Positions 3,777-64,000 of a stretch of 64,000 nt of DNA are shown one piece after another. Origin of the DNA: Candidatus Doudnabacteria bacterium (GTDB taxonomy: Bacteria > Patescibacteriota > Doudnabacteria > UBA920); contig JAEUSF010000006.1 in the NCBI GenBank assembly GCA_016788665.1, forward strand, positions 4,401-68,400, in the 5' to 3' direction. The translations under genes and the position numbers were made by a program. The notes beneath the pieces were generated by a model. The model ran no database searches, was not told the origin of the DNA, and saw nothing but the letters and a program-made list of their open reading frames with translations. Every line of letters begins with the position of its first letter. The stretch's first letter is position 1.

Positions 3777-3858
3777 CTTGTTATACTGGAAATGTTATTG
3801 TGATTATCCGATCCGGATATACTAACACCATCCAGATCTGCAGATAAATACAGATACT

Positions 3859-4233
3859 TTATTTTCTTGTTTCTCTTAAAACTCTATGCGGTTTTATATA
3901 CCTATCTCTAAAATTATAAATAATACCCAACTCCAAATTTAAGGCTTGTAAGTATACCTGGGTCTGATAATAATCCTGTTTGATTATAAAAGGCTTAGCT
4001 TTCATTTCTAGCACAATTTTATCAAAAACTAAAAAGTCCAGTTTATTACCCGTATCTCCCACTATTAACTCCCTCTTATAAACAATATTTTTATTTTTTA
4101 GAGCCTTTTCATAAGCATCGCAATATTGTTTCTCCCTTCCAAACCGGCTTATTTGATTCTGCACATTAAAAGCAATCCCATTTAAAATGTAACTCTCTTC
4201 TTCAAACAATAACTTATTGTTACTATTTAACAT
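3859..4233 (-). CDS. GxxExxY family protein (PD-(D/E)xK-like fold)
   Basis: EEESYILNGIAFNVQNQISRFG..DFLVFDKIVLEMKAK..LGIIYNF matches GxxExxY family; start moved to internal ATG (MLNSNNKLL) to remove the 70-nt overlap with the bgl stop and match the usual ~125-aa family length. Confidence 0.6.
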   Translation of the reverse strand: MLNSNNKLLFEEESYILNGIAFNVQNQISRFGREKQYCDAYEKALKNKNIVYKRELIVGDTGNKLDFLVFDKIVLEMKAKPFIIKQDYYQTQVYLQALNLELGIIYNFRDRYIKPHRVLRETRK

Positions 4234-4285
4234 ATGTTTATCGGATAAGTAGTCATCCGCAGATCCGGATTGCAGTATCCGTATA

Positions 4286-5530
4286 TCAGGATCGGTGTGC
4301 GGACAAAGAAGCATCGGGTTCGTAAACCATCTCATTACTTCCGCATATTTCTCCAAACTTTAAAGCACTATAACGTACTTTACGCTTTAAAAGACCTTCG
4401 CGGTCTATTTCTACAAGCCCAAAACGTGGACCAAACCCCATGAGCCACTCGAAGTTGTCGGTCAGGCTCCAGTACAAATAGCCTTTTACATTTACTCCCT
4501 GTTTAATGGCTTTGTGAACAAAATACAAATGGTCCTTTATAAACTTTTCTCGCTTTTTGTCATGCCTGTCTGCTATGCCATTCTCGGTTATGTAAACAGG
4601 TTTCTTATATTTTTTTAACGACAAAAGTACTCTTTCTAAACCTTCCGGATGTATACCCCAACCCAAGTCCGTCTGCTCGTGACCCGAATGGCTTTTGCGT
4701 CTTTTTCCAAGCCAACCCACATGGTGATGAAAATAATAATTGACTCCGACAAAATCACAAAAGTCTATGGTACGGTTTAAAATGTATTCGTTAGCCAAAT
4801 AATGCGCCAAGTATGTAATTGGCTCGCTAAAAATATTTACCGCTTGAATATCGGACAGGTGAAAAGCCATACTAACAGGCTTTTGAGAATGCATCCTGAG
4901 TATTTTATAAGACCGGTTGTGTGCAGAAATTAAATTCTGTAAAACTCTAAAAGATTTAAAAAAACTTTTTTCCTGAGGCGGATACAAACCCAAAAAATAC
5001 GAGAAAGAAACATAAACTTCAGGCTCGTTAAATGTCAGCCAAAAATCCACCTCTTCGCCAAATCTTTTGGCTATCACTTCAACATAGCGTAAGAAAAATT
5101 GAATATTTTCTTTTTTCTCAAACGCCCTTTTTTCAGCAAACCAAACCGGATTAGTATAATGGTGCAAAGTTAAAAATACTTTCAGTCCATTAAACCTGGC
5201 GGACTGAAGCATTTTTTCGTAATGGTCTAAAACATGTTGGTCAAACTCCCCTTCTTTGGGCTCTACCCGTGCCCACTCTATGCCAATGCGAATAGAGTTA
5301 TGGTTTAAACTTTTTGCTAACGCAAAATCTTCTTCGTAACGGTTATAAAAGTCACAAGCTTGTCCGGACATAAAATCTTCAGGTTTCTTACCCGCAGACT
5401 CAAGTACCCCTTGGCGCCCCAAACTTTTTTCCCACTTATACCAATCACTGTAAATATTACCCCCTTCGGTTTGGTAAGCGCTATTTGCCGTGCCCCACAA
5501 AAATCCTTGGGGAAATTTTAATTTTTGCAT
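4286..5530 (-). CDS. GH1 family beta-glucosidase
   Basis: FPQGFLWGTANSAYQTEGG N-terminus, catalytic TFNEP and ITENG motifs of glycoside hydrolase family 1. Confidence 0.9.
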   Translation of the reverse strand: MQKLKFPQGFLWGTANSAYQTEGGNIYSDWYKWEKSLGRQGVLESAGKKPEDFMSGQACDFYNRYEEDFALAKSLNHNSIRIGIEWARVEPKEGEFDQHVLDHYEKMLQSARFNGLKVFLTLHHYTNPVWFAEKRAFEKKENIQFFLRYVEVIAKRFGEEVDFWLTFNEPEVYVSFSYFLGLYPPQEKSFFKSFRVLQNLISAHNRSYKILRMHSQKPVSMAFHLSDIQAVNIFSEPITYLAHYLANEYILNRTIDFCDFVGVNYYFHHHVGWLGKRRKSHSGHEQTDLGWGIHPEGLERVLLSLKKYKKPVYITENGIADRHDKKREKFIKDHLYFVHKAIKQGVNVKGYLYWSLTDNFEWLMGFGPRFGLVEIDREGLLKRKVRYSALKFGEICGSNEMVYEPDASLSAHRS

Positions 5531-11053: not shown

Positions 11054-11447
11054 GCATCCTCTTTAAGATTTAGCAGGTTTACCCTGCCAGTTAATACGTA
11101 TTATAGCAACCAAACGCTTTTAGGCAAACCAAAATTTTAAAAATTAAAAAACCACCTTTCGGCAAGCCTTAGGTGGTTTTTTATAAAGTTTTTATGCCCA
11201 TAACATTCCTTTGAATTCGCTATTTACGACTAGCGGAACGCCTCGCAAAGACTGGATTCTTAAAGAAATTTCTTTTACAGGACACCTATGATTGCGATTA
11301 TTTCCACACGCACAGTGTGCGCACAAACCCTGCAGCTGAGAAATAATGCTTAGTTTTGTTTGTTGTATTTCAGACATAAAATTTGAATTATCTTTTTAAA
11401 TCAAAATGTAAAAATCAAAAATCAAAGTTGCAATAAAAAATTTAAAA

Positions 11448-11819
11448 TTATTTTCTTCCCTTAAGTGTTAAAATACTCGAAGCTAAAATATTAGACACCT
11501 CAATCAATTCCTTTAATAGCCAATCTTGCTCTTTTGGCTCACCTTTTTCCAAATCCCTAAACAAAGTAATCCAGACTTTTGACTCATTAGAGGACTTAAG
11601 CGAATAAGTAAAAAAATTTATAAAATCTTTTTTGGAAGAAGCAGAGTTGGCTTCAACGTAGTTTGCCAAAACGCTTGTCCCGCTTCTTAAAAGCTGTTTA
11701 CCCATTACATCGTTTACAGAACTTTTAGGTAACGAGTCGATAAACTTAATTAGCCTTAGTACCCAAGAATACAACCGCTTTTTGAATTCAAATTTAAATT
11801 TTGAATTATCATTTTCCAT
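11448..11819 (-). CDS. four-helix-bundle protein (23S rRNA intervening-sequence protein family)
   Basis: KFEFKKRLYSWVLRLIKFIDSLPK..MGKQLLRSGTSVLANYVEANSASSKKDFINFF matches the TIGR02436-type four-helix-bundle family. Confidence 0.75.
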   Translation of the reverse strand: MENDNSKFKFEFKKRLYSWVLRLIKFIDSLPKSSVNDVMGKQLLRSGTSVLANYVEANSASSKKDFINFFTYSLKSSNESKVWITLFRDLEKGEPKEQDWLLKELIEVSNILASSILTLKGRK

Positions 11820-11861
11820 TTTGATTTTTCAATTTTAATTTTTGCGGCTTCGTACTACCAG

Positions 11862-18090: not shown

Positions 18091-18149
18091 ATGTTTATAG
18101 TTATTAGTTATTATTTATAAAATATTTACAATCCATGAGCAAGCCAAAT

Positions 18150-28354: not shown

Positions 28355-28487
28355 CAATCAGGCGGTGTCGCATACAGCGATGCCGTTTTTTTTGGTAATA
28401 AATCCACGTCTCAGTTTAGCGTATTATAACTTTCTAAACTCGCCTAACACCCTAAGCTTCAAATAATTGTATATACAGCTAACACTG

Positions 28488-28540: not shown

Positions 28541-28551
28541 ATTACTTCTTG

Positions 28552-33307: not shown

Positions 33308-34182
33308 TGACCGAAACAAAAAAAGGCGAATCTTATATTTTGGCAGAAACCCTGCTCTGGAGCTTGTTCCCGGTAATTACAGTTATATCTTTAAACCAAC
33401 TAAGGCCAATGTTTTCATTGGCCTTAAGCTCTTTTTTTGCTGCTATTTTTTTTGCTTGTGTAATTACTTATAAAAAACTTTGGCATGAACTCAAAGAGAG
33501 AAAAGCACTTTGGGACGTACTGTGGGGAACCTTGCTTTTAGGAATAATATATTACTTACTTCAATTCGCCGGATTGTCGCTCTCCACCCCAGGAAACGCT
33601 GCCCTCGTTTCGCAAATGGAAATACTTTTTAGTTTTTTATTGTTCAATGTGTGGAAAAAAGAACGCATAGATTTTTTGCACCTCACTGGCTCTGGCTTAA
33701 TGCTAATGGGTGCCGCTGTCGTGCTCTTACCCAAAGGTTCCGGCGTTGCCTTAGGCGACCTACTCATATTAATTTCAGCTGCCGTAGCTCCGTTTGGCAA
33801 CCTGTTCCAAGGCCGCGCAAGGAAACAAATTAGCAGCTATACCATAATGTTTCTGCGCAACGCAATAAGTTTTCCGGTCATACTTTTTATTGCTTTTTTG
33901 CTTGGACAAACGCACAGCGAAGTCAACACTTTCAAATCTTTATGGCCAGTTATTATTAACGGCATTTTTCTTCTAGGCATCTCAAAAATATTATGGCTGG
34001 AAGCAATTCACCGCATTCCGGTAGTAAAAGCAAACGCTTTCAACTGCATAGGACCTGCCTTCACTCTAATTTATGCTTATTTGCTTTTGGGTCAGCGCCC
34101 GAATGCCTTTCAAATTTTTTCCTTAGTACCAATATCGATAGGTATATATTTGCTTACCCGACCAGCCAAACAAACTCCATAA
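33307..34182 (+). CDS. DMT superfamily (EamA-like) transporter
   Basis: About 10 TM helices in two repeats typical of EamA; overlaps the upstream stop (ATGA). Confidence 0.7.
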   Translation: MTETKKGESYILAETLLWSLFPVITVISLNQLRPMFSLALSSFFAAIFFACVITYKKLWHELKERKALWDVLWGTLLLGIIYYLLQFAGLSLSTPGNAALVSQMEILFSFLLFNVWKKERIDFLHLTGSGLMLMGAAVVLLPKGSGVALGDLLILISAAVAPFGNLFQGRARKQISSYTIMFLRNAISFPVILFIAFLLGQTHSEVNTFKSLWPVIINGIFLLGISKILWLEAIHRIPVVKANAFNCIGPAFTLIYAYLLLGQRPNAFQIFSLVPISIGIYLLTRPAKQTP

Positions 34183-38863: not shown

Positions 38864-39811
38864 TTAATTTTTGACAATTGCCCTAAGTTTAGCGGGCTTA
38901 GATCGAGAGTTTTTTTCAAGTTCTGCCTCGGAAGGAATAACAGGCTTTTTGGTAAGAATTTTTGCCTGGGGATTTTGACCACATATGCACATTGGAAACT
39001 CCGGCGGACAAACACAGCCTTTACTTAGCCCATTAAAATATTGTTTAACTATCCTGTCCTCTAATGAGTGAAAACTTACTACTACAAGCCTGCCTCCAGG
39101 TCTTAAAATATTAAATGCTTTGGGCAAAAACTCTTGCAAATTTTCCAACTCATGGTTTACTGCTATTCTTAAGGCTTGAAAAATTCTTCGGGCACTGTCG
39201 TCGGCTTTATGCTTAAAAGGTTTTGGCAAAGCGTCTTTTATTACCTCATAGAGTTCCCTGGTCTGCTTCAAACTTAATTTATTTAACTTATACTGTGTAA
39301 TCTTTTTAGCTATTAGGCCAGCAAACTTTTCCTCACCAAAATCTTCAAATATTTTTCTAAGCTCCGCTTCAGTTTTCGAATGTAAATAAAAAGCGGCATC
39401 TTCGGGCTGACTCTGGTTAAAACGCATATCTAACGGCTCAGACTTCTGAAAACTAAACCCTCTACCCGATTGATCGAGCTCAAAACTCGAAAGTCCTATA
39501 TCGGCAACTATTCCTGAAATGTTTTCAAAATTATGACTTTTTACAATTTTGTCTATATGTTGGAAATTTCCATGATGCAATACAACCCTATCTGCATTAA
39601 TTTTGTAATTTTGAATTTGTAATTTGAAATTCTCAAGAGCAACCGTATCCAAATCTATACCCAAAACTTTTCCATTCGCTTCCGTATGTTTTAAAATCTC
39701 TAAACTATAACCACCTCCGCCCAAAGTAGCATCTACAAAATTTTCGTCTGAACCAGGCTTAAGGTACGAAATAACCTCTTGTAAAAGGACAGGAATATGA
39801 TCATATAACAT
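38864..39811 (-). CDS. rsmH: 16S rRNA (cytosine1402-N4)-methyltransferase RsmH (MraW)
   Basis: MLYDHIPVLL.. N-terminus, SAM-binding DATLGGGG, and other RsmH family motifs. Confidence 0.9.
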   Translation of the reverse strand: MLYDHIPVLLQEVISYLKPGSDENFVDATLGGGGYSLEILKHTEANGKVLGIDLDTVALENFKLQIQNYKINADRVVLHHGNFQHIDKIVKSHNFENISGIVADIGLSSFELDQSGRGFSFQKSEPLDMRFNQSQPEDAAFYLHSKTEAELRKIFEDFGEEKFAGLIAKKITQYKLNKLSLKQTRELYEVIKDALPKPFKHKADDSARRIFQALRIAVNHELENLQEFLPKAFNILRPGGRLVVVSFHSLEDRIVKQYFNGLSKGCVCPPEFPMCICGQNPQAKILTKKPVIPSEAELEKNSRSKPAKLRAIVKN

Positions 39812-44690: not shown

Positions 44691-46103
44691 TTACACCTCC
44701 TTAACCCTTCCAAACCCCACACTGTCCCTAAATACCTTCCCCGCCTTAAGCACAGGGGTATAAGAAACCGTAAATTTGCCATATTTAGCATTTATAACAT
44801 CTATAGCTATCATAAGAGCGCCTTTAGATGTATGCTTTTTAAACAAAGCCTGTTGAAACACATAAGGCTTTAAATTATCCACAGTAACCCCCACTAGCTT
44901 ACAATTAGCAATAACTTTTTCTGCTTCGAGAAAATTTCTCAAAATTTTCCGGCTTTCACAAAACAAGTCCCTTGCATCAAAAATAGGTTCACCCAAAGTT
45001 ACAGAGTTGCCATAAGAGTTATACTCTCCATCTCTTACATAAGCAACCAAAACATTACCCCACAGCTTCTTCCGCCTAAGCCTTTCAGCCACCATTTCGC
45101 AAAGCTTATACAAAACCGGTTCAAAAAAATCCCGGCCCCTATACTCTTTAGGTAAGGTATACATATGACCAATGGACTTAATAGTTTGGTCATGATGAAC
45201 TTTGGACTTCCAGCTACCATCTAATTTACCCATATGGTGAAGATGATACCCGCTTATACCAAACACTCTCACAAGTCGGCTTAAAGGAAAATCTCGCAAA
45301 TCTTTTAAAGTCCTAATCCCCAACTCATTAAGCCTCTTCTCCTGCCTCCTAGCTATTCCAGGAATATCAGTAAGTTTAAGTTTTTCATATAAATCTTCTT
45401 TAGTAAAATTTAAGAATTTAGAATGACAAATGCAGAATACAGAATTTTTACAAAAACATTCTAAATTCTTAATTCTCAATTCTGCATTACTTATAATTAC
45501 CAACCCATCAGGTTTCTGCATATCACTGGCTATTTTAGCCAAAAGTTTATTGTCCGCAACCCCAATACCGCAGGTTAAATAGTCTCCCACCTCTCTTTTT
45601 ATTCTCTGCTTTATTTCCCAAGCCACCCTCACGGCCTCTTCAAATGGATTAACTGATAGATAATAATCCAACTTTGCCTTATGGAAGTATTTTAGTTGAT
45701 CATTTTTAGATTTTGTAATTTGTATTATTTTTTGAAACTTGTAATTTGGAATTTGTAATTTAATATTACAGCTTGCTGTAATGTCTACGTACGCTTCATC
45801 TATACTTGCAGGCTCAACAAAACTACTATAGTCCCTTAAAACTTTTAAAAACAATCGGTGATAATGCCTATAAGCTTCTGCCCTGGTGTGGGTTAAAATA
45901 ATTTTAGGATAAAGCTTTTTAGCCTCCCACACAGGTGTACCGGTTTTTATACCCCAACGTTTTGCCTCTATACTTGCAGCTATTATTATGCCACCTAAAT
46001 GCTCGCACACACCTAAAGGCTTGCCTCGCCACAACAAATTATCCTGTTGTTCAACCGAAGCAAAATAACTATTCATATCCAAATGAAGAATAACGGGGGT
46101 CAT
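44691..46103 (-). CDS. dinB: DNA polymerase IV (Y-family, DinB)
   Basis: ILHLDMNSYFASVEQ, catalytic SIDEAYVDIT, little-finger domain; contains an in-frame heptad-repeat-derived insertion (LQIPNYKFQKIIQITKS) at 45711-45775. Confidence 0.85.
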   Translation of the reverse strand: MTPVILHLDMNSYFASVEQQDNLLWRGKPLGVCEHLGGIIIAASIEAKRWGIKTGTPVWEAKKLYPKIILTHTRAEAYRHYHRLFLKVLRDYSSFVEPASIDEAYVDITASCNIKLQIPNYKFQKIIQITKSKNDQLKYFHKAKLDYYLSVNPFEEAVRVAWEIKQRIKREVGDYLTCGIGVADNKLLAKIASDMQKPDGLVIISNAELRIKNLECFCKNSVFCICHSKFLNFTKEDLYEKLKLTDIPGIARRQEKRLNELGIRTLKDLRDFPLSRLVRVFGISGYHLHHMGKLDGSWKSKVHHDQTIKSIGHMYTLPKEYRGRDFFEPVLYKLCEMVAERLRRKKLWGNVLVAYVRDGEYNSYGNSVTLGEPIFDARDLFCESRKILRNFLEAEKVIANCKLVGVTVDNLKPYVFQQALFKKHTSKGALMIAIDVINAKYGKFTVSYTPVLKAGKVFRDSVGFGRVKEV

Positions 46104-46106
46104 AGG

Positions 46107-46155
46107 AGTAGTGAGTAGTGAGTAGTGAGTAGTGAGTAGTGAGTAGTGAGTAGTG
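46107..46155. repeat. (AGTAGTG)x7 perfect heptanucleotide tandem array abutting the dinB start codon
   Basis: Counted directly: seven exact copies 46107-46155, immediately 5' of the ATG at 46103 (minus strand). Confidence 0.95.
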
Positions 46156-46212
46156 CTACGGATCCCGTTACTACCGTCAACTACCCGCTACTTATTACCT
46201 GCTTTTTTAGCT

Positions 46213-50371: not shown

Positions 50372-52084
50372 TTATTGGATTTTGATATCCAAAATTTTTA
50401 ATTTTAATTTTTTTTGACCATTCCAACTATCTTCCAATAGCTCGCACACGGCTTGAACTTTTGACCCATTTAAAATATTAGCAATTTTTGACCCCATGTT
50501 AAACCCAATGGCTGAAAAAGTTTTATTTTCTTTTTGCAACTGAAGCTGAACATGCTTACTCCCTTGTCCTACAATTTTATGCGAAACCACATCCAAATCC
50601 CTTATTAAAAATTTAGGAGCCGGATTTCCTACACCATAAGGCTCCAAAATCATAAGAGCAGATGCCGTATATAAATCAAGCTCAGAGACCAAAAGCTCTG
50701 CTTCTATTTCAACCGAAGCAATCAAGTCATCGGGTCGTAAATTACTTTTGGTAAACTCCAGCACTTTAAGATAAAAATTTTCAAAATTACCCGCGTGAAG
50801 CGTTAAACCTGCTGCCTGCTTATGACCCCCAAACCTTACCAAATTTTCTGACGCATACTTTAAAGCATCAATAATACTAAACTCGCCTACAGTTCGAGCA
50901 GAACCCGTGGCATAATCCCCTTCTTTAGACAAAACTATTGTTGGTTTGTTAAATTCTTCTGCAATTTTACCCGCTGCCAGACCCACCACGCCCTTGCTCC
51001 ACCCTTCTCCCATAAGTACCAAAAAATTTCTGTCAGCAATTTTCTGCGCCTCCTCTCGCGCTTCACTCATAATCCGCTCAGTCAATTCCTGTCTTCTCTT
51101 GTTTACAGTTTCCAAATACTCCGCCTTTTCACCTGCAGCAATTGGATCCTCTTCCAACAAGACACCCAAAGCCACGTCTGCATGTTCTAGCCTTCCTGCG
51201 GCATTCAAACGAGGTGCCAGAACGAAACCCAAAGTATACGCATCGGGTTTTTTTGTTTTAAAATCCAAACCCGCCTTGTTACATAGAGCCTTCAGACCTT
51301 GCCATTTGGTTTTTTCCAAAACCTTCAAGCCATACTTCACCAAAATCCTGTTTTCCCCTAACAGCTCGTGACAATCCGCAACTGTGCCTATGGCCACCAA
51401 ATCCAAAAGCCACTTTTCCCAACCCGGTTTTAATTTAGGATTTAAAATTTCAGATTTAAGATTTTGCAAAACCGCAGAAGCGAGTTTAAAGGCCACACCC
51501 ACGCCGGTTATGTCCCTATACGGATAGGTGTCCGAAGGATTTTTCGGGTTTATGAGGGCAAAAGCCTGGGGGGTAGGACCAATAATTTCGTGATGATCGG
51601 TAATAATAAAATCAACACCATTCTCCAAACACCAATCCGCCACATCACAAGAATTAGTTCCGCAATCTACAGTTATTATTATTTTTGTCCCGCTCTCTTT
51701 TATTTTTAAAACAGCATCCAAATTTACTCCATAACCCTCCGTAAACCTGTCAGGTATATAGCTATAAACATTTGCCCCCAATTCTTTAAATGCCAGCCGT
51801 AAAACCGCATTAGCTGTTACCGCATCAGCATCGTAGTCACCATAAATACAAATTTTTTCGCCCAGTTCGATGGCTTTCCAAATTCGATTTACCGCTTTTT
51901 CCATATCCAAAAATAAAAACGGAGCATTAAGCCCCTCGTACTTCGGATCCAAAAATTCTTTTACTGCCTCCTCGTCGCGTATTTTACGATTATACAAAAT
52001 TTTCGCAAGTACAGAAGGAAGATTTTCATAAACTTTTAAATCTTCTGCAGAAACATTTTCTTTTAATTTCCAGATTTTTTGCAT
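50372..52084 (-). CDS. recJ: single-stranded-DNA-specific exonuclease RecJ
   Basis: DHH motifs (IYGDYDADAV..., TDHHEI) and DHHA1 GGHKQAAG. Confidence 0.9.
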   Translation of the reverse strand: MQKIWKLKENVSAEDLKVYENLPSVLAKILYNRKIRDEEAVKEFLDPKYEGLNAPFLFLDMEKAVNRIWKAIELGEKICIYGDYDADAVTANAVLRLAFKELGANVYSYIPDRFTEGYGVNLDAVLKIKESGTKIIITVDCGTNSCDVADWCLENGVDFIITDHHEIIGPTPQAFALINPKNPSDTYPYRDITGVGVAFKLASAVLQNLKSEILNPKLKPGWEKWLLDLVAIGTVADCHELLGENRILVKYGLKVLEKTKWQGLKALCNKAGLDFKTKKPDAYTLGFVLAPRLNAAGRLEHADVALGVLLEEDPIAAGEKAEYLETVNKRRQELTERIMSEAREEAQKIADRNFLVLMGEGWSKGVVGLAAGKIAEEFNKPTIVLSKEGDYATGSARTVGEFSIIDALKYASENLVRFGGHKQAAGLTLHAGNFENFYLKVLEFTKSNLRPDDLIASVEIEAELLVSELDLYTASALMILEPYGVGNPAPKFLIRDLDVVSHKIVGQGSKHVQLQLQKENKTFSAIGFNMGSKIANILNGSKVQAVCELLEDSWNGQKKLKLKILDIKIQ

Positions 52085-55679: not shown

Positions 55680-55931
55680 AAATGATACTAATATAACTTT
55701 TTCCAATTATCTATTCTAACTTAGGGAATAAATTTTATTTTCCTTTCATCGAAAATCCTTTTGGCTACATCACAATACTGTTTTTCCCTTGCACAACACC
55801 CAAGTTCGTTATGAGTCGAAAAGAGCACACCTCTAATTTCATAGTTAAATCTTTGTAAATTAACTCATTGTTTTTTATATCTGTATTATTAGTATCATCA
55901 GCATGCATTCGCATATTAGTATCTCATACAG

Positions 55932-56948
55932 TTAGCCGATCAAACTAACCATTTCTACCAACCTGTTACTATAGCCAAACTCGTTGTCATACCAAGCCAC
56001 TACCTTCACAAAATTCCCGTCCACAACCTGGGTTAAGGACAAATCTACAATTGAAGATGCCGGGTTACCTACTATGTCTTGCAAAACTAAAGGCTCTTTT
56101 GAAACTTCTAAAATTCCTTTATACCTTACCTCTTTTGAAGCTTCTATAAATGCCTCATTAACTTCGTCTTTAGTTACATTCTTTTTTAAAAGTAAAGTAA
56201 AATCTGACAAACTGCCCACCGGAGTCGGTACTCGAAAAGAAACTCCGTCAAACTTACCTTTTAGACTCGGTATAGCCTGTGTTGCGGAAATTGCTGCACC
56301 TGTTGTTGTCGGTATTATATTCACTGCCGCTGCTCTTGCACGACGCAGGTCGTTTGACTTACCGCCCGGCGGAGGCCCGTCCACTAAATTCTGTTCCGCA
56401 GTATAACTGTGAATAGTAGACATTAGCGCCTTTTCCACTCCAAATATTCTATGCATTATTTCTAGAACCGGCGCAATACAATTGGTAGTACAAGAGGCGT
56501 TGCTTATTATTGCCTGTTTATGATATTCCTGGTTATTTACCCCCAAAACTATTGTCGGGGTTATGCCCTCATCTTTAGCAGGAGCACTTATAATAACTTT
56601 TTTGGCGCCTGCCTTAATATGTGCGCTAGCCTTTTCACTGTCCGTAAACCTGCCAGTCGACTCTATAACCACATCTACAGAAAGCTGCCCCCAAGGCAGT
56701 GCGGTCGGATCTTTCTCTGCAAAAACTTGGTACTTTTTTCCGTCAACAATTATATTATGAGCGTCAAAAGAAATATCATATGAAGACCTGCCGTAGTTAC
56801 TGTCATACTTAAGCAAATGAGCCAAAACGTCCGTTCCTGTCAGGTCATTTATCCCAACGACTTCAATATCTGGTTTTTCCAAGGCAATCTTAAACGCCTG
56901 TCTTCCAATACGACCAAAACCGTTAATAGCTAATCTAATCTGACTCAT
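55932..56948 (-). CDS. gap: glyceraldehyde-3-phosphate dehydrogenase
   Basis: INGFGRIGR NAD-binding, catalytic SNASCTTNCIAP. Confidence 0.95.
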   Translation of the reverse strand: MSQIRLAINGFGRIGRQAFKIALEKPDIEVVGINDLTGTDVLAHLLKYDSNYGRSSYDISFDAHNIIVDGKKYQVFAEKDPTALPWGQLSVDVVIESTGRFTDSEKASAHIKAGAKKVIISAPAKDEGITPTIVLGVNNQEYHKQAIISNASCTTNCIAPVLEIMHRIFGVEKALMSTIHSYTAEQNLVDGPPPGGKSNDLRRARAAAVNIIPTTTGAAISATQAIPSLKGKFDGVSFRVPTPVGSLSDFTLLLKKNVTKDEVNEAFIEASKEVRYKGILEVSKEPLVLQDIVGNPASSIVDLSLTQVVDGNFVKVVAWYDNEFGYSNRLVEMVSLIG

Positions 56949-57001
56949 ATTTTTAAAAGTTAATTATTCGTATTCTTACCGCAAACTTTAAATAAAGTTT
57001 G

Positions 57002-57036
57002 TAATTTCTAATTTGAAATTTTGAATTTGACATTCC
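57002..57036. repeat. heptad array TAATTTC-TAATTTG-AAATTTT-GAATTTG-ACATTCC between gap and the pfkB-family gene, preceded by palindrome CAAACTTTAAATAAAGTTTG (56982-57001)
   Basis: Read directly; the array abuts the pfkB-family stop codon. Confidence 0.8.
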
Positions 57037-58073
57037 TAGTCATTCTTCTTACTAACTAAATTTAAAACCTCTTGCTTTATTTTTTCACTGCTTATTACCA
57101 CAATCTTAAAGCTTTTCATTTTCTTTAGCCTTGTCTCTATTTCATGCATAGTAAGCAAACCTGCCTGCGGTCCAACTTGCTGTACCACACTGCCAGCATT
57201 TACCGGACCCCAAGTCAGCGCCTCCTTATGAGACTTGCCGTGCACCAACCCTGCAATATAGGCAGTAGTAAAACTATCCCCAGCTCCGGTAGCTTCAAGC
57301 CTAGGCCCTGGATATTCCGGACAATAATAAAACCCTTCTTGGCTAAAACTATACGCCCCTTTTCTCCCATCAGTTAAAGCAATAGCTTTAGGACCCAATT
57401 CCATTAAAGCCTGGCATAACTTTTCCGGATCTCTACCCAAATCGCCTACCCAGCTTTGAGCTTCCTCTACATTTAATGATAGCACGGTGGTCCTCTTAAG
57501 CATTTCGGAGTTAAACTTTGGGCCCTTCCTTAGTTGAAAAGTGCCTGGATTGAAACCGAGGCTTACCTTATATTTGTCCAAATATTTTGCCAAATCTTTA
57601 TAAATTTTTTCAAAACCTTCGCCCATGCTAGTTAAATACACCCAGTGAGCCGGAACTAAATTCGGCAGCTTGTAATTTCTGTGCTCATGGTGAACCAAGA
57701 TTGTTCGTTCCCCGTCATAACTTATAACAAAAGATGCATTAGTCCCCTGCTTTTCGTCTATTACAATATACCTGTCAGATACACCTTCTTTTTTCAATTT
57801 ATAAATTATTTCCCTACCGCCTGCGTCATGCGCCAAAACAGTATAATAAGCCGCCTTAAGCCCTAAACGGGCACTCCCCACCGCATTGTTCGCCGCATTT
57901 CCCGCCACTGTTCTATACATTTTATCTACAGGCAGTTTATCACCCCAATTCAAAATAGCTTTTTGCTTACCCTCGATATTTTTAATTTCAATATCGTGAA
58001 TAAATAAAAAGGTATCTATAGTTGCGTCACCAATTGAGATAATGTCAAGCATTTTTTCGCTTATATAAGTCAC
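57036..58073 (-). CDS. PfkB-family carbohydrate kinase (ribokinase-like)
   Basis: N-terminal sugar-binding segment, GG dipeptide region, C-terminal GAGDSF anion hole; GTG start, or ATG at 58052. Confidence 0.75.
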   Translation of the reverse strand: MTYISEKMLDIISIGDATIDTFLFIHDIEIKNIEGKQKAILNWGDKLPVDKMYRTVAGNAANNAVGSARLGLKAAYYTVLAHDAGGREIIYKLKKEGVSDRYIVIDEKQGTNASFVISYDGERTILVHHEHRNYKLPNLVPAHWVYLTSMGEGFEKIYKDLAKYLDKYKVSLGFNPGTFQLRKGPKFNSEMLKRTTVLSLNVEEAQSWVGDLGRDPEKLCQALMELGPKAIALTDGRKGAYSFSQEGFYYCPEYPGPRLEATGAGDSFTTAYIAGLVHGKSHKEALTWGPVNAGSVVQQVGPQAGLLTMHEIETRLKKMKSFKIVVISSEKIKQEVLNLVSKKND

Positions 58074-58093
58074 AGAGGACGGCCCTCTATAAT

Positions 58094-58128
58094 TATTTGA
58101 AATTTGTTATTTGTTATTTGGAATTTTT
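58094..58128. repeat. heptad array TATTTGA-AATTTGT-TATTTGT-TATTTGG-AATTTTT overlapping the tkt C-subunit stop, upstream of the pfkB-family gene
   Basis: Read directly. Confidence 0.8.
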
Positions 58129-59094
58129 TCTAGATATTACTTTTCTGATAGCAGCTTTTATTGACTTAATTCCCATACAATACTTTTCTATTAACTCCTC
58201 AGGCTGACCAGACTCTCCAAATGAATTAGGCATGCCTACCATTTCAACCGGCACAGGAAAATTTTGGGCCAATACTTCACACACAGCGCTACCACACCCA
58301 GCCATCGTTTGATGCTCTTCCACAGTTACCACGGCCTTACATTTTTTCGCAGCTTCAATAATTGTTTCCGAATCTATAGGCTTTATTGTGTGGTTATTTA
58401 TAACCATGCAACTTACGTTTTCCTTTTCCATTTCCGCCGCAGCAACCAGCGCATTGTAAAGCACTGGCCCGCTCCCAATAATTACCACATCCGAACCGTC
58501 CTTGAAAACCTCAGCTTTTCCTACAGTAAATGAAGAACTGTTTGTCGTAATAATTGGCGTCTTAGAACGACCGAGACGAAAGTAAGCTGGACCGGCCATC
58601 TTTCCCAAAGCAACCGTTGCTTTTCTGGCTTCCAGGGCATCACAAGGCACAACAACAGTCAAATTGGGCAACACTCGGGTAATAGCAACATCTTCTAAAG
58701 CTTGATGAGTGGCTCCATCGGGCCCAACCGTAACACCTGTATGAGCTCCAGCTATTTTTACATTTGCCATACTATAACAAACACTTACCCTTAATTGGTC
58801 CCAATTCCGTCCCGGGGAAAAAGTAGCGTAAGAAGAAACAAATGGCACTTTACCATATAAAGCCAGACCTGCTGCAACACCCATCATGTTCTGCTCAGCT
58901 ACACCGCATTCCACAAACCTTTCGGGATACTTTTTAGCAAAATCTAATACCATAGTGCTTTCAGCCAAGTCAGCCGTTAAAACTACAACATTTTCATCTA
59001 TTGCTGCCAAATCTAAAAGCCCTAAGCCGTAACCTTTGCGCGTTGGCTCTTGCTCAATATCACTATTTCCAATTTTGGGATTCAAATAAGTCAT
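58114..59094 (-). CDS. transketolase, C-terminal (pyrimidine-binding plus C-terminal) subunit
   Basis: Split-transketolase C half with conserved Pyr-domain motifs. Confidence 0.85.
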   Translation of the reverse strand: MTYLNPKIGNSDIEQEPTRKGYGLGLLDLAAIDENVVVLTADLAESTMVLDFAKKYPERFVECGVAEQNMMGVAAGLALYGKVPFVSSYATFSPGRNWDQLRVSVCYSMANVKIAGAHTGVTVGPDGATHQALEDVAITRVLPNLTVVVPCDALEARKATVALGKMAGPAYFRLGRSKTPIITTNSSSFTVGKAEVFKDGSDVVIIGSGPVLYNALVAAAEMEKENVSCMVINNHTIKPIDSETIIEAAKKCKAVVTVEEHQTMAGCGSAVCEVLAQNFPVPVEMVGMPNSFGESGQPEELIEKYCMGIKSIKAAIRKVISRKNSK

Positions 59095-59336
59095 TTCCTT
59101 TTATATTGATTTTCTCCTGTCACCATTTTACGTCTCACCACCATCTGCCTATTAAACTCAGGCTCCTTTAAACCATACCCTTCTGCTAATATCAAATAAT
59201 CCACCCGTGAATTGCATTGTCTTAACTCTTCTTCTAATTTGGTCAAAGCCTCTTCGGGTTCTTTTGCTCTTGCAGAAACCCACTCGACTATAATACTTTC
59301 TGCGTACGAGCTATTAAAATTTTCTTCTTCAGTCAT
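59091..59336 (-). CDS. small acidic hypothetical protein between the two tkt halves
   Basis: 81 aa; overlaps tktC by ATGA; no family recognised. Confidence 0.35.
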   Translation of the reverse strand: MTEEENFNSSYAESIIVEWVSARAKEPEEALTKLEEELRQCNSRVDYLILAEGYGLKEPEFNRQMVVRRKMVTGENQYKRK

Positions 59337-59380
59337 AATTCCTAATTCCTAATTCTAAATCTTACATCTTACATCTTACA
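59337..59380. repeat. two adjacent heptad arrays, (AATTCCT)x2.5 then (ATCTTAC)x3, filling the intergenic gap between the tkt N-subunit stop and the small ORF start
   Basis: Read directly. Confidence 0.9.
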
Positions 59381-60232
59381 TTACTTATGCTCGCTATCTA
59401 TCTGACCTCTTAAAGTCCTTAATTCCTCTAGAGCTACTTTTGCCTGCTCCTTATTTGGCGGACTACCGTGCCATTTAAAATCACCTTCCATAAAATCCAC
59501 GCCCTTCCCAGGTATAGTATGCGCAATTATCACCGTTGGTTTTTCATAAATGGCTTTTGCTTCCATACATGCGTTTATAATAGCTTGATGATTATGTCCA
59601 TCCACCTCCAAAACATGCCAATTAAAAGCTTCGTATTTGGCTTTTAAATTATCTAAAGGCATAACATCCTCTGTGTAACCGTCTATTTGTATATTATTGC
59701 GATCAATTATTGCCGTAAGATTATGAAGTTTGTACTTTCCTGCAAACATAATCGCTTCCCAAACCTGACCTTCCTGCTGCTCGCCGTCAGACATAATTAA
59801 ATAAACCCTCTGAGACTTTTTTCTGTCCATATAAAGTCCGTAGGCCATACCAACCGCCTGACTTGCTCCTTGTGCTAAGGGTCCTGAAGAAGTTTCTATC
59901 CCAGGCAAGCTTAAATTATGCGGGTGGCCGTGCAAACGGGTTCCAAATTTTCTTAAAGTTTTAAGTTCATCTTTCATAAAATAACCTGCCTCCGCCAAAC
60001 TTGCATATAAAACGGGACATATATGCCCACACGACAAAACTAACCTATCACGTTCTTCTAGCTTGGGTCTTTTTGGGTCATGATTCAGGACACTAAAATA
60101 CAAACAAGCAAAAATATCGGCCATACCTAAAGGCCCGGCACTATGTCCGCTACCTGCTTCTAAAAGCATTTGCACTATATCTTGCCGTATATCGTTGGCT
60201 TTGTATTTTATTTCGTTTATAGATAACTTCAT
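59381..60232 (-). CDS. transketolase, N-terminal (TPP-binding) subunit
   Basis: GSGHSAGPLGMADI..., GDG-type TPP/metal-binding region. Confidence 0.85.
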   Translation of the reverse strand: MKLSINEIKYKANDIRQDIVQMLLEAGSGHSAGPLGMADIFACLYFSVLNHDPKRPKLEERDRLVLSCGHICPVLYASLAEAGYFMKDELKTLRKFGTRLHGHPHNLSLPGIETSSGPLAQGASQAVGMAYGLYMDRKKSQRVYLIMSDGEQQEGQVWEAIMFAGKYKLHNLTAIIDRNNIQIDGYTEDVMPLDNLKAKYEAFNWHVLEVDGHNHQAIINACMEAKAIYEKPTVIIAHTIPGKGVDFMEGDFKWHGSPPNKEQAKVALEELRTLRGQIDSEHK

Positions 60233-60354
60233 AATATTGAAGCAACCTCTCCCTGCCCTCTCCTAAAAAGGAGAGGGAAAGGCTACAACTGCATTCCTCT
60301 CCCCTCCTAGAATAGGAGGGGTGTCCCGATTTATCGGGACGGGGTGGTAGAGAC

Positions 60355-60689
60355 CTACGATAAATACCTTTTTATTTCTTGAACAACTCCATTTAAATCA
60401 CTTAATACTTCTTTATTTTGGAATCTAATTATTTTAATACCCTGACTCTCTATAAACCCTGCGCGTTTTATATCATTCTGATAGCTTACAGCATTATCAT
60501 GAGTAGAGCCATCTAGCTCAATTCCCAAACGTAACTCTGGGCAATAAAAATCTAAAGAATAAATTCCTACACCATATTGCCTTCTAAACTTTTTACCTAG
60601 TTTATTACCTTTTAATTGTCTCCAAAGTATAATTTCCGGAAGGCCAAGGTTGTTTCTGAGTTTTTGCCTTAGGCCTTTTTAATTAGCAT
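60355..60689 (-). pseudogene. DUF559 (Vsr-like restriction-endonuclease-fold) gene with an N-terminal frameshift
   Basis: Minus-strand translation LRNNLGLPEIILWRQLKGNKLGKKFRRQYGVGIYSLDFYCPELRLGIELDGSTHDNAVSYQNDIKRAGFIESQGIKIIRFQNKEVL matches DUF559; the only ATG (MLIKKA, 60689) is in another frame and hits a stop after 6 codons; one frame change would restore a ~113-aa protein. Confidence 0.65.
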
Positions 60690-60846
60690 TGTTGTATAAG
60701 TAGTCCATACTCTACCACCTCCCGTCGCTAGCGCGACGTACTCCTCCTGTTCCAAGAGGAGAATACTGCAACAGCTTTCTTTCTAATACAGAATTCCAAT
60801 TTTACTTTACTTAATAAAATACTTCTTTTTTATCTTTTAGGTTACA

Positions 60847-61482
60847 TTAATTGGCATTCAACTTTTCAAAAGCCTCTTTTGGGTTTTCAGTTTTTACAAT
60901 AGCACTACCCACAACAATTAAATCTGCACCTGCCTCTTTTATACTTTTTATATTAGTTTCATTGACGCCACCGTCTATTTCTATTATAGCATGCGGCAGT
61001 AAAGCTTTAAGCTCTTTGATTCGTTCGAGAGTTTCCGGAAAAAAAGGAGAGCCTTGAAACCCAGGCTTAATTCCCATTAACTGAAAATTTTTCAAAAATA
61101 CGTAATCCGTCAAATATGACACAGGAGTGTCTAAATTCAAACAAACAGCAGGCTCTAACCCTAAATCTTGAATTTGCTTTAGGGCTTGGGTTAATAAATT
61201 CTTATTGGAATAAGCCTCATAATGCAAAACTACCTTTTTGAATCCACAAATCTTGTAATCTAAAAAATCTTTAGGCTCTTCGCACATAATATGAGCTTCC
61301 CAAATAAAGGCAGGATTTAACGCATCAATTTCAGCTACGGGAAGTAAGGTGTTGGGAACAAATTTTCCATCAGCAAAGTCCACCTGGATTCTTTCGACAC
61401 CAGGAATTTTTGTAACCAAAGAAGAGGTGGCAGAAAATTTTTCTTTAGTTTGCTCTAAAATTGCCGGAATAATAATAGCCAT
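60847..61482 (-). CDS. rpe: ribulose-phosphate 3-epimerase
   Basis: VDFADGKFVPN, ..HIMCE.., IEIDGGVN TIM-barrel motifs. Confidence 0.85.
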   Translation of the reverse strand: MAIIIPAILEQTKEKFSATSSLVTKIPGVERIQVDFADGKFVPNTLLPVAEIDALNPAFIWEAHIMCEEPKDFLDYKICGFKKVVLHYEAYSNKNLLTQALKQIQDLGLEPAVCLNLDTPVSYLTDYVFLKNFQLMGIKPGFQGSPFFPETLERIKELKALLPHAIIEIDGGVNETNIKSIKEAGADLIVVGSAIVKTENPKEAFEKLNAN

Positions 61483-61487
61483 ATTTC

Positions 61488-61943
61488 CTAATTCCTATTT
61501 TCTAATTCTATAGAATTAATCTTTTCTATTCTCTTCACATGTCTGGCACCTTCAAAACCCGTCTCAATCCATAAATCCACAGCTCTCATAGCTTCTTCGG
61601 CTGTTATAAAATGCGCGCCCAAAGAAATCACATTAGCATTGTTATGCTGGCGAGAAAGCTTAACAACTTCCTCCGGACCTCCATAAAAGACCGCAGCTCT
61701 TACACCCTTTGCTTTATTAGCAACTACGGCTTCTCCCTGCCCGCTATAACCTATGACAATACCCATACTACCAGCTTTGTGCCCAACTTTTACCGCACAC
61801 GGATAAACAAAGTCAGGGTAATCGTCTTCGTGTTTGTATTCAAAAGGCCCGCAGTCTTCTACAGACTGCCCCGACGTCTTTAAATGGTCAATTAACTTGT
61901 TTTTCAATTCAAATCCTGCGTGGTCTGAGGCGATATAGATCAT
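61488..61943 (-). CDS. rpiB: ribose-5-phosphate isomerase B
   Basis: MIYIASDHAGFELK.., GIVIGYSGQG.., RpiB/LacAB family. Confidence 0.85.
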   Translation of the reverse strand: MIYIASDHAGFELKNKLIDHLKTSGQSVEDCGPFEYKHEDDYPDFVYPCAVKVGHKAGSMGIVIGYSGQGEAVVANKAKGVRAAVFYGGPEEVVKLSRQHNNANVISLGAHFITAEEAMRAVDLWIETGFEGARHVKRIEKINSIELENRN

Positions 61944-61997
61944 TTTAGCTATTAGCTAGTAGCAAGTAGCGTGTAGCACTGCTAGCTACTAGCTACT
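61944..61997. repeat. heptad array TTTAGCT-ATTAGCT-AGTAGCA-AGTAGCG-TGTAGCA followed by inverted copy GCTAGCTACTAGCTACT, abutting the rpiB start
   Basis: Read directly; AGTAGC units are related to the AGTAGTR family. Confidence 0.85.
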
Positions 61998-62006
61998 CCC
62001 TACAAA

Positions 62007-62690
62007 CTATAGATTAATAATTTTATTAAAATAACTTGGAACCAAGCTGGCACCACCCACCAATAAACCATCCACATTCCTTTGTGCCAAGAACCCTTGG
62101 GCATTACTTGGGTTAACACTACCTCCATAAAGAACTTTTTCTACACCATAGCGGTTTTTTATAAACAAAGCAATTTTTTCAGTATGATCTGGCGTAGCCG
62201 TTTTACCACTCCCAATTGCCCATACCGGTTCATACGCAACCACAACTTTTTCGGCCTCCAGCCCTGCCAAACCTAAGTCTAACTGATTTTTTATAATATC
62301 GGTCACCTCCATGTCGTCCTGCAAAACAGTTGTTTTGTACCCAACACATAAAACAGGAACAATATTGTTCGCCAAAGCAAGCCTAATCTTGGCGTTTACC
62401 ATATGATCATCATCACCCGCAAAACGTCTTTCACTATGCCCAACCAAAACATACTTAATTTTAAAATTTTTAAGTTGTAAGGGGCTGACCTGCCCGGTGA
62501 AAGCACCTTTCTCTTCCCAAAAACAATCTTGCGCACCTAAATTTGGATACTTCACCGAAGACAAAAAGACATGAGGCGGACACAATACCACAGTATTTTT
62601 TTTTGTCTTTTCTATTAAAGAAGTAAGCTTAACAGCTTCTTTTAAACTTACCGGATTTAATTTCCAATTTCCAATTATTAATTTTTTCAT
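62007..62690 (-). CDS. tpiA: triosephosphate isomerase
   Basis: IIGNWKLN, catalytic VGHSERR and AYEPVWAIGSG motifs. Confidence 0.9.
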   Translation of the reverse strand: MKKLIIGNWKLNPVSLKEAVKLTSLIEKTKKNTVVLCPPHVFLSSVKYPNLGAQDCFWEEKGAFTGQVSPLQLKNFKIKYVLVGHSERRFAGDDDHMVNAKIRLALANNIVPVLCVGYKTTVLQDDMEVTDIIKNQLDLGLAGLEAEKVVVAYEPVWAIGSGKTATPDHTEKIALFIKNRYGVEKVLYGGSVNPSNAQGFLAQRNVDGLLVGGASLVPSYFNKIINL

Positions 62691-62785
62691 TTTTTATTCT
62701 TTAACTGTTTTAAAAACATTTTTATTTTGCAAGCAGATACTACAATATTTTACTAACTTTGACCACGTAAACTTAATCTTGTTAA

Positions 62786-62820
62786 CTTACTTCTTACTTC
62801 CTAATTCTTCATTTACCTAA
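62786..62820. repeat. heptad array CTTACTT-CTTACTT-CCTAATT-CTTCATT-TACCTAA overlapping the galT stop codon
   Basis: Read directly. Confidence 0.85.
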
Positions 62821-63827: not shown

Positions 63828-63830
63828 ATA

Positions 63831-63880
63831 AGTAGTAAGTAGTAAGTAGTAAGTAGTAAGTTTGATACCTACTACTTACT
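63831..63880. repeat. (AGTAGTA)x4 heptad array abutting the galT start, with inverted copy TACTACTTACTA (63868-63880) forming a potential hairpin over the ruvX stop
   Basis: Read directly. Confidence 0.9.
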
Positions 63881-64000
63881 ATTTATTTCTGTCTAAATAA
63901 TTTTGTAAAAATATTTGCGCCGCTAAACTATCAACTTGTTTTTTTCCACCAGGTAATTTTTTTGCCATGGAGGAGCTAAGTCTCTCGTCTTGCGTTTTAA
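63879..64000 (-). CDS. ruvX: Holliday-junction resolvase-like YqgF/RuvX, C-terminal fragment (gene start beyond window)
   Basis: Minus-strand ..MAKKLPGGKKQVDSLAAQIFLQNYLDRNK* resembles the RuvX C-terminus (..KKEVDSEAAVIILESY.. in E. coli, recalled from memory). Confidence 0.45.
   Translation of the reverse strand, partial: KTQDERLSSSMAKKLPGGKKQVDSLAAQIFLQNYLDRNK

Follow-up and report, generated by a model that had tools for sequence, protein, structure and literature searches.

Tandem repeats of seven-nucleotide units have been described between bacterial genes on several occasions. As outlined in the 2007 survey by Mrazek, the short tandemly repeated repetitive (STRR) sequences of cyanobacteria such as Calothrix PCC 7601 and Nostoc/Anabaena, and the heptanucleotide long simple-sequence repeats of other bacteria, comprise several unrelated families of tandem 7-nt units per genome, occur in strong excess over other periods and lie mainly in intergenic DNA, often within operons. 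The intergenic heptamers of Xanthomonas (GGGAATC) and Nostoc (GGGGAYT) include 70–75 convergent inverted pairs per Xanthomonas genome, and their single or paired type is kept between species while length and sequence vary (PMC4692102). In marine Beggiatoaceae, TAACTGA repeats of 2–6 copies are mostly found to end within a few nucleotides of a start codon, some of them inside open reading frames (ORFs) or overlapping the end of the preceding ORF, and some in ribosomal-protein operons; they are predicted to be unstructured, and Shine-Dalgarno motifs are rare there (PMC4679880). A further setting is the intervening sequence (IVS) of 23S rRNA in Coxiella and Leptospira, in which terminal inverted repeats form a stem around an ORF of the S23p family (PF05635) that is in reductive evolution. 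In Coxiella, two or three tandem heptamers (GACAGAT) occupy the stem arm just upstream of this ORF, their copy number differs among strains, and the first of them is the site of RNase III cleavage (PMC4990558). Here we analyse heptad arrays that occur at the gene junctions of a sugar-metabolism cluster, and beyond it, in a 64,000-nt stretch of a Candidatus Doudnabacteria contig (the window), a member of the candidate phyla radiation (CPR, or Patescibacteria).

An earlier note on this DNA had called such arrays an unrecognised feature. Heptamer repeats enriched between genes are, however, known from the cyanobacteria, Xanthomonas and Beggiatoaceae, and since both intergenic heptamers, including inverted pairs, and S23p-bearing IVSs have been described, the kind of element is already known. 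In the layout and placing of its repeats the window resembles each of these systems (its counterpart to the ribosomal-protein operons is an array between rplJ and rplL), and a stretch of a Nostoc plasmid considered below has the same anatomy. Nevertheless, no single system matches in full. Unlike the classical STRRs, the arrays reside in a CPR host instead of a heterocystous cyanobacterium, consist of AT-rich units unrelated to the classical consensus and are shorter, with 3–7 copies. The Xanthomonas and Nostoc heptamers are G-rich and quadruplex-capable, which the present units are not, and no S23p link is reported for them in PMC4692102. Beggiatoaceae employ one dominant unit genome-wide, nearly always as direct repeats, whereas here many units occur and a large share are inverted or form cassette arms. 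In contrast to the IVSs of helix 9, 25 or 45 of 23S rRNA, the elements described here are located in mRNA spacers and protein genes, and in most copies at the junctions of the cluster the ORF is missing, whether by loss or from the outset, frequently together with one arm.

Palindromic selfish DNA between the genes of operons is familiar in the form of repetitive extragenic palindromic (REP) sequences, and Rickettsia palindromic elements (RPEs) insert in frame into genes; such elements form genome-specific families. RPEs, REPs, bacterial interspersed mosaic elements (BIMEs) and REP doublets forming hairpins (REPINs) are defined by a conserved consensus of 20–150 nt, not by tandem 7-nt arms, and REPINs depend on a RAYT transposase. 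The window contains no conserved 20–40-nt imperfect palindrome of this type; its arms are tandem 7-mers of several families.

We consider it rather probable that the junction arrays are STRR-like heptanucleotide repeats representing the arms of IVS-type cassettes, some still paired and others orphaned. The host is a metagenome-assembled genome (MAG) of about 40% GC, its dinB product is 100% identical to a Doudnabacteria MAG protein, the best relatives of its tktN are Doudnabacteria MAGs, and the identities of the minus-strand genes pgk, gap, pfkB, tktC, tktN, rpe, rpiB, tpiA and galT are upheld by Pfam. Arrays were detected with Tandem Repeats Finder (TRF) and a sliding match count for each period, and 100 dinucleotide-preserving shuffles within each coding or intergenic segment served as the null model. 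Period 7 yields 29 clusters, 17 intergenic and 12 coding, where the shuffles lead one to expect 0.81 and 1.46 (maxima 3 and 4), about 2.3 in total. Periods 14 and 21 are harmonics of 7, period 1 gives 21 clusters of homopolymer-like runs, and the other periods between 2 and 20 give one to five clusters each, with no rise over the shuffles for periods 4–6 and 8–12. The density of period-7 clusters is 1.9 per kb in intergenic and 0.22 per kb in coding DNA, an 8.7-fold difference. The earlier note had named, as the outcome that would speak against it, period-7 repeats no more frequent at junctions than AT-rich composition predicts; because the clusters exceed the shuffles and are denser between genes, composition does not account for them within the 64-kb window.

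Thirty-three arrays are distributed over the window. One precedes tRNA-Glu in antisense orientation, others occupy spacers between convergent genes, and about half have no adjacent start codon. At least three unrelated unit families (CAAATTN, AGGAATT and CTACTNA) recur at unrelated loci; a search for the CAAATTN family returned five loci where 0.62 would be expected, each of them in minus orientation. Within the cluster, TRF recovered all five arrays that had been named before, their contact or overlap with stop and start codons is borne out in the sequence, and the unit indeed varies from junction to junction (Table). The assertion that every junction carries heptads holds for seven of the ten junctions between the region upstream of galT and pgk, the others being rpe–tktN, small ORF–tktC and gap–pgk. 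A fixed downstream hairpin, also asserted, dissolves on folding into two unrelated small hairpins, one following the pfkB–gap array and the other, at ~58066–58096, following the array at the end of tktC. The two best junctions, tpiA–rpiB and that upstream of galT, had been overlooked; both carry inverted arrays.

Table. Heptad arrays, hairpins and cassette-like elements in the window. Fold z values compare folding energies with those of shuffled sequence.
Feature	Position	Strand	Evidence	Remarks
Orphan array at pfkB–gap, CAAATTN family, ~5 copies	56996..57038	-	TRF, family search	TRF tract 56998–57034, period 7, 5.3 copies; begins 5 nt past the pfkB stop codon (57036–57038); array part unstructured in fold; whole spacer z = -0.9, non-significant
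8-bp hairpin CAAACTTT/AAAGTTTG, 3' of the pfkB–gap array	56982..57001	-	Sequence, fold	
Orphan array at tktC end, CAAATAA/CAAATTT type	58093..58127	-	TRF, family search, translation, fold	TRF tract 58093–58126, 4–4.6 copies; spans final codons and stop (58114–58116) of tktC, whose protein ends ...KNSK*
Orphan arrays at tktN–small ORF: two abutting perfect arrays forming the entire 44-nt spacer	59337..59381	-	TRF	TRF tracts 59336–59355 (TAATTCC x2.9, perfect) and 59359–59381 (ATCTTAC x3.3, perfect); sense strand (GTAAGAT)x3.3 then (AGGAATT)x2.9 up to ATG, no C; z = +1.4, 186/200 shuffles fold as well or better
Orphan array at rpiB 3' end/rpe ATG, AGGAATT/AGGAAAT type	61482..61512	-	TRF, translation, relatives	TRF tract 61485–61508, x3.4; codes for final 8 residues and stop of rpiB; abuts rpe ATG
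Inverted arrays filling tpiA–rpiB spacer, TAGCTAG/CTAGCTA type	61943..62005	-	Repeat search, fold	27-nt arms, 78% complementary; stop-to-start hairpin, -28.8 kcal/mol, z = -2.6
Orphan array immediately 3' of galT stop, sense strand AAGAATTAGGAAGTAAGAAGTAAGT	62785..62816	-	TRF	TRF tract 62786–62809, x3.4; galT–tpiA spacer z = +1.7
Hairpin from upstream gene's stop to galT ATG	63828..63895	-	TRF, repeat search, fold	5' arm short (ATAGTAAGTAGTAGGTA); 3' arm perfect, expanded (CTTACTA)x4.7, 2 nt short of ATG; -20.3 kcal/mol, z = -4.8, 0/200 shuffles as good
Orphan array in rplJ–rplL spacer, AATAACT type, no G	18092..18121	-	TRF, Pfam	1 nt before rplL ATG; z = +1.5
Hairpin reaching dinB ATG	46106..46192	-	TRF score 100	5' arm degenerate; 3' arm perfect (CACTACT)x7.1; -23.7 kcal/mol, z = -2.4
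Two in-frame heptad insertions inside dinB (gene 44691–46103)	45404..45763	-	Translation, alignment, fold	45404–45488: 75-nt hairpin, (NNAGAAT)x4/(ATTCTNN)x5, -20.7 kcal/mol, z = -2.5; 45704–45763: direct CAAATTN array
In-frame array in rsmH, NFKLQIQNYKIN	39598–39631			
In-frame array in dus, HVTRNSSHVTRNN	16483–16519			
In-frame array in recJ, QNLKSEILNPKL	51433–51465			
Complete cassette, four-helix-bundle/23S_rRNA_IVP gene 11448–11819	11398..11841	-	PF05635, E = 4e-18	Arms 11398–11449 and 11790–11841: 52-nt inverted heptad arrays, 75% complementary
Intact GxxExxY (PDDEXK_3) gene ~3859–4233	3800..4295	-	Pfam, tblastn	Inverted CGGAT-type short-period arms; 5' arm overlaps upstream gene's end
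Decayed GxxExxY cassette, gap–pgk spacer	55707..55931	-	tblastn, E = 5e-7	5' arm and ORF remnant 55712–55849 kept, 3' arm gone
DUF559 endonuclease-like remnant (Vsr-like) 60370–60660, rpe–tktN spacer	60233..60846	-	tblastn, E = 1e-14; NCBIfam	Flanked by GC-rich short-hairpin clusters (CTCTCC...GGAGAG types), no heptads

The cassette architecture is most evident where an ORF is retained. In complete copies, a purine-rich heptad array precedes the gene for an S23p four-helix-bundle protein, and a complementary pyrimidine-rich heptad array follows it. The window holds one such copy, directly downstream of lexA, and at rpiB–rpe of relatives (L013, L015 and L161–L163) arrays of the AGGAATT and AATTCCT types enclose a four-helix-bundle gene. 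At the same junction the window has kept the AGGAATT-type 5' arm only, which, as judged from its sequence, is a solo arm of the type that brackets the gene in those relatives. According to Pfam and NCBIfam, the junction ORFs belong to four families: four-helix-bundle/23S_rRNA_IVP (TIGR02436, PF05635), GxxExxY (TIGR04256, PDDEXK_3), DUF559 and GIY-YIG. A flanking inverted-repeat score of at least 14 was reached by 3 of 7 four-helix-bundle and 9 of 16 GxxExxY genes, compared with 0.2–0.3% of about 2000 control ORFs. The period is specific to the family. Flanks of the CPR four-helix-bundle genes (n = 6) have a period-7 autocorrelation of 0.431, versus 0.297 +/- 0.069 for controls. Not one of 20,000 control subsets drawn at random was as high, and period 8 is not raised. 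GxxExxY flanks in CPR loci are 8-periodic and not 7-periodic, and those of DUF559 and GIY-YIG are aperiodic.

Decay is visible at the junctions themselves. The gap–pgk spacer, homologous to that of the closest relative, L001 (score 56.5), retains the relic of a GxxExxY cassette. The DUF559 remnant between rpe and tktN belongs to a different element family; intact versions are present at this junction in L001, L002 and L004. A small GIY-YIG ORF (6667–6921, plus strand) lies just downstream of tRNA-Glu (region 6560–6921) and is preceded by GC-rich hairpin-like repeats (gtcccgagcgaagtcgaggggcac / gttccgagcgcaggcc...).

Comparison with relatives speaks to the origin of the arrays. About 35 loci with a syntenic operon were fetched, of which 16 near-clade and 18 sister-clade loci were used. 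The former contain 27 period-7 clusters per 100 kb and have junction medians of 57–470 nt; the latter contain 6.3 per 100 kb, the background level, and most of their junctions measure 0–15 nt or overlap. That the same operon is compact and free of arrays in the sister clades shows the arrays to be secondary insertions, the fillings of a formerly compact operon. Turnover has been fast. Orthologous junctions carry unrelated sequences in related genomes, and this applies even to L001, despite 93% protein identity of its tktN, so that the arrays are not conserved as such, although the tpiA–rpiB spacers of 13 of 15 near-clade loci fold with z < -2. Arm families are common to different junctions within a genome in 3.5%, versus 0.3% between genomes, a tenfold difference, and the family to which the arm in the window's gap–pgk spacer belongs reappears at rpiB–rpe in L006 (score 36); this within-genome sharing and recurrence therefore point to dispersal or copying. 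Given that the same arrays also occur within genes and outside the cluster, are lacking in sister lineages and have diverged in the closest relative, they are not the regular punctuation of an operon that the earlier note had envisaged.

Two side observations concern the wider distribution. A distantly related genome from another Patescibacteria lineage (L059) also has many heptad arrays, with the units TAACTTA, AACCAAC and AACTAAC (860–885, 11547–11574 and 15963–15997), so the trait is sporadic across the CPR; its TAACT-like units recall the TAACTGA repeat of Beggiatoa. Furthermore, several relatives (L001 12170–12466, L005 9151–9513, L010 12682–13062, L015 9566–9925, L029 14471–14776) have an ORF for a small membrane protein (MKIFSLETKKHLAGWS...) between tktC and pfkB or between rpe and tktN. 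Downstream of this ORF in L001 and L015, heptads of the NACTA type extend to the next start codon.

Arrays of the same kind interrupt protein-coding genes in frame. Alignment of dinB with the Pol IV structure PDB 7yll reveals extra segments of ~42 and ~26 residues exactly at its two arrays, and it is at these same two sites that the orthologues from Doudnabacteria show hypervariable length and sequence, with repeat-like peptides. Further in-frame arrays are found in rsmH, dus and recJ, and the arrays of rsmH and dinB are almost identical in DNA sequence.

The association of heptads with four-helix-bundle genes extends beyond the CPR. A tblastn search of plasmids with a CPR four-helix-bundle protein as query, for which 16 contexts were fetched, retrieved mainly heterocystous cyanobacteria, the classical STRR taxa, along with Riemerella, Gemmatirosa and Azospirillum; the sampled copies include Nostoc, Calothrix, Stanieria, Geminocystis, Pseudanabaena, Anabaena and Riemerella. 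In 13 of the 16 genes the flank is dominated by period 7 (mean autocorrelation 0.52, versus 0.27–0.35 for other periods), and most copies have the purine-rich array upstream and its complement downstream, as in GGGAGTA x8 / CCCTACT x4.5, GGGAACA / CTGTTCC x7 and TAGGGTG / CACCCTA. Among other genes on the Nostoc plasmid, only 5 of 30 have such a flank (Fisher p = 3e-5), and two of these lie next to the four-helix-bundle gene. In a 50-kb stretch of this plasmid, hairpins of heptads and octads without an ORF occupy spacers as well as parts of mobF and CyRepA1, and one pair surrounds the four-helix-bundle gene. Period-8 inverted arrays (GCAGAGGA / CCCCTCTG) occur on the plasmid of Nostoc sp. C052 (L182) at 19455–19539, 33769–33861 and 44805–44915, that is, in one spacer and in the coding sequences of mobF and CyRepA1, parallel to the hairpin inside dinB. 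In the cyanobacterial plasmids L172, L175 and L177, heptad-flanked four-helix-bundle genes sit between CRISPR-associated genes and share their orientation. The neighbours in Pseudanabaena and Anabaena sp. 90 are cas6 and cas4; those in Picosynechococcus are cmr2 and cmr3.

Several observations weigh against the arrays being cassette arms. None of the five arrays originally named brackets an ORF, and most of the five lack an inverted partner: stem-forming inverted repeats are absent at the five orphan arrays of the cluster listed in the Table, and the four-helix-bundle ORF, found in the loop downstream of lexA and at rpiB–rpe of L013, L015 and L161, is absent at these junctions. Direct support for cassette descent of orphan arrays is limited to rpiB–rpe and the gap–pgk relic, the latter of a non-heptad type; elsewhere descent is what we infer. 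Arrays outnumber four-helix-bundle genes by ~25:1 in the window and ~10:1 on the Nostoc plasmid, and they could therefore arise alone and merely attract or retain the gene. The arrays flanking the gene in one cyanobacterial context (L172) are direct, so a stem is not obligatory. The samples are small (6 CPR and 16 plasmid genes) and phylogenetically non-independent, and one plasmid supplied the whole control for the cyanobacteria. Period 8 at GxxExxY genes was not replicated, with periodic flanks in none of three non-CPR plasmid homologues; this association is confined to CPR loci. No strain-level relative was found: a look-up by exact protein returned no contig, the best metagenome match was 84% and the best genome (L001) 93%. 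Finally, no mobilising enzyme was identified, nor was a RAYT seen in the window, where not every ORF was annotated and RAYT was not searched for systematically.

With these reservations, we propose the following course of events under the cassette interpretation. In one Doudnabacteria subclade, cassettes encoding S23p, and related ones encoding GxxExxY or DUF559 proteins, would have entered the spacers of the formerly compact galT–tpiA–rpiB–rpe–tkt–pfkB–gap–pgk operon, lying in the sense direction, and also those loops of proteins that tolerate insertions. The genes of the cassettes would then decay and be deleted, as suggested by the relics in the window, leaving ORF-less hairpins or single arms. 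Slipped-strand mispairing may cause the copy number of the arms to drift, a step proposed because of the unequal arm copies, the perfect tracts and the strain variation in Coxiella. In the polycistronic mRNA, paired arms would form stop-to-start stems and, if they behave like rRNA IVSs, are probably substrates of RNase III. Orphan arms, which employ three of the four bases and form no structure, would be tolerated and perhaps mildly favourable ahead of start codons without a Shine-Dalgarno motif; they may persist because a structure-free three-letter sequence is harmless in that position. RNase III processing, near-neutrality of the arrays and cassette descent of every orphan array are thus what we infer from these patterns.

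The folding data are in keeping with two classes of array. Paired, inverted arrays fold well, with z between -2.4 and -4.8 (tpiA–rpiB, upstream of galT, upstream of dinB and within dinB), whereas orphan arrays have z values of +1.4 to +1.7, that is, less structure than their shuffles, because each lacks either G or C; the galT–tpiA array is classed as unstructured on this ground. The 5' arm is the purine-rich one at 24 of 27 CPR hairpin or cassette junctions. We considered whether period 7 might serve to place stop codons in all three frames, but stops are commoner in the 5' arm at 11 and in the 3' arm at 11 of these 27 junctions, and purine-first polarity alone holds as a rule for the arms. 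An RNA-processing role for the paired arrays, one of the functions suggested in the earlier note, appears plausible by analogy, since RNase III cuts rRNA IVSs of the same architecture (PMC4990558).

Could a still broader reading apply? We tentatively suggest, as a possibility and not as the expected outcome, that the heptamer STRRs of the CPR, cyanobacteria and Bacteroidota and those of the Coxiella IVS are cis-elements of one widespread, hitherto unrecognised family of selfish or mobile cassettes, with an Avd-like pentameric S23p protein as the trans factor. In such a family, S23p would bind or propagate 7-nt arrays, ORF-less arrays and hairpins would be non-autonomous derivatives comparable to miniature inverted-repeat transposable elements, and transcribed spacers, rRNA helices and protein loops would be invaded alike.

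An alternative to cassette descent, which we regard as unlikely, is that the repeats were born in place by slippage from chance seeds, with the polymerase favouring 7-nt units and without any relation to cassettes. In many bacteria no long simple-sequence repeats are more abundant than heptamers, which have been explained by the footprint of the polymerase in one proposal (Mrazek 2007, cited via PMC4679880 and PMC4692102). Perfect, expanded arrays beside degenerate ones (GAGTAGT x7.1, TAAGTAG x4.7), hairpin arms of unequal copy number and the great excess of arrays over cassette genes would all fit. However, slippage alone does not explain inverted pairs with a consistent purine-first polarity, near-identical families at non-homologous loci (CAAATTN at five loci; dinB and rsmH), the sharing of arms within a genome or the period-specific association with four-helix-bundle genes in at least three phyla. 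Slippage is best seen as expanding the arrays, not as creating them.

It is also conceivable, if quite improbable, that the arrays are translation signals, acting as unstructured standby or enhancer sites or as coupling sites that replace the Shine-Dalgarno sequence before the next cistron. A translational role has been proposed for the TAACTGA repeats of Beggiatoaceae (PMC4679880), which share position and structural properties with the present arrays, and in a Nostoc study for heptamers. The setting agrees with the SD-less system supposed in the earlier note: a Shine-Dalgarno-like motif precedes 16 of 78 gene calls, leaving ~80% of the window's genes without one. Several arrays end 0–4 nt before an ATG (galT, dinB, rplL, rpe, rpiB and the small ORF), the orphan arrays are less structured than shuffles, and start-adjacent arms lack G. 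Yet sister lineages and some close relatives manage the same operon with junctions of 0–15 nt and no arrays. Moreover, the galT–tpiA and pfkB–gap arrays stand only after stop codons, distant from the next start, other arrays lie within genes or, in antisense orientation, ahead of a tRNA, the units are heterogeneous, and the hairpin forms sequester part of the leader. As a separate observation on gene starts, several of them (e.g. 6667, 13523, 16684 and 9894) have a TATAAT-like box only ~6–10 nt upstream, which suggests leaderless or very-short-leader mRNAs.

We consider it very unlikely that the arrays are DNA or RNA sites for one dedicated protein, for which an Avd-like four-helix-bundle protein would be the candidate, and hence form a regulatory network as opposed to selfish DNA. 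Four-helix-bundle genes do co-occur specifically with heptads, their profile matches the pentameric S23p structures 2gsc and 2rld, some family members match models of bAvd and of Avd, the accessory protein of diversity-generating retroelements, and a heptamer-binding protein has been postulated in a Nostoc study. Nonetheless, the window contains a single four-helix-bundle gene, and the units differ in every genome. With at least three unrelated unit families within 64 kb, iterons for one binding protein, another role raised in the earlier note, are unlikely at the level of the cluster. Finally, contingency loci, in which gain or loss of 7 nt would switch dinB or recJ or retune junction spacing, hardly come into question: although a 7-nt unit shifts the frame, arrays occur in dinB, recJ, rsmH and dus, and dinB is immediately preceded by a perfect x7 array, the genes at the junctions have housekeeping functions, the frame is kept across orthologues, and the in-gene arrays are poor substrates for slippage because they are degenerate (66–80% matches).

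Other identities were examined and set aside. A scan of the window against Rfam at gathering thresholds returned two tRNAs only and no rRNA, so that no known RNA family accounts for the arrays. The hairpins lack the trailing U-run of intrinsic terminators, and the cluster junctions lack the TGnTATAAT-like boxes that precede many other genes of the window, which makes promoters less likely there. Integron attC sites were dropped on inspection, as neither GTTRRRY core sites nor an integrase were seen and the genes are housekeeping genes. A run of AATTTCC x2.6 at 62659–62676 was taken as a codon coincidence, since it encodes part of the N-terminal region of triose-phosphate isomerase with its conserved GNWK motif.

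A few further features of the window deserve mention. Between the halves of the split transketolase lies an 81-aa ORF (59091–59336, minus strand), the small ORF of the Table, which overlaps the tktC start by 4 nt, has no match in Pfam or NCBIfam and is 62% identical in L001; L002 and L015 have similar-sized ORFs at this site. The coding sequence of gap (GAPDH) includes a 36-nt tandem duplication at 56094–56171 (2.2 copies, 79% matches). Positions 27200–30000 form a GC-rich island (0.52, versus ~0.40 elsewhere) with a 445-aa ORF (28552–29889, minus strand) lacking a Pfam match, and a 686-aa ORF (13523–15583, plus strand) likewise lacks one.

What is new about these elements? We found no work joining heptamer repeats with Patescibacteria, and GxxExxY and S23p are rarely mentioned in the literature that we retrieved; there, an association of STRRs with S23p was found stated for Coxiella only and was not generalised. 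The occurrence in the CPR, the location in mRNA spacers and protein loops, and the period-specific association of heptads with four-helix-bundle genes across phyla appear to be new, and the link between heptamers and S23p may itself be so.

The proposed new punctuation code for operons thus gives way to a more ordinary explanation that can be checked. Two separate puzzles, the nature of STRR and heptamer repeats and the role of S23p, appear as one architecture in at least three phyla, which opens both to testing. If a heptamer-binding protein exists in Nostoc, as has been postulated, S23p is its obvious candidate, and the heptad arms are candidate entry sites for RNase III in mRNAs. For the CPR, whose genomes are streamlined, a central-metabolism operon that is otherwise compact has been enlarged several-fold by insertions, and insertions that reach dinB, recJ, rsmH and dus affect gene calling, operon prediction and estimates of streamlining.

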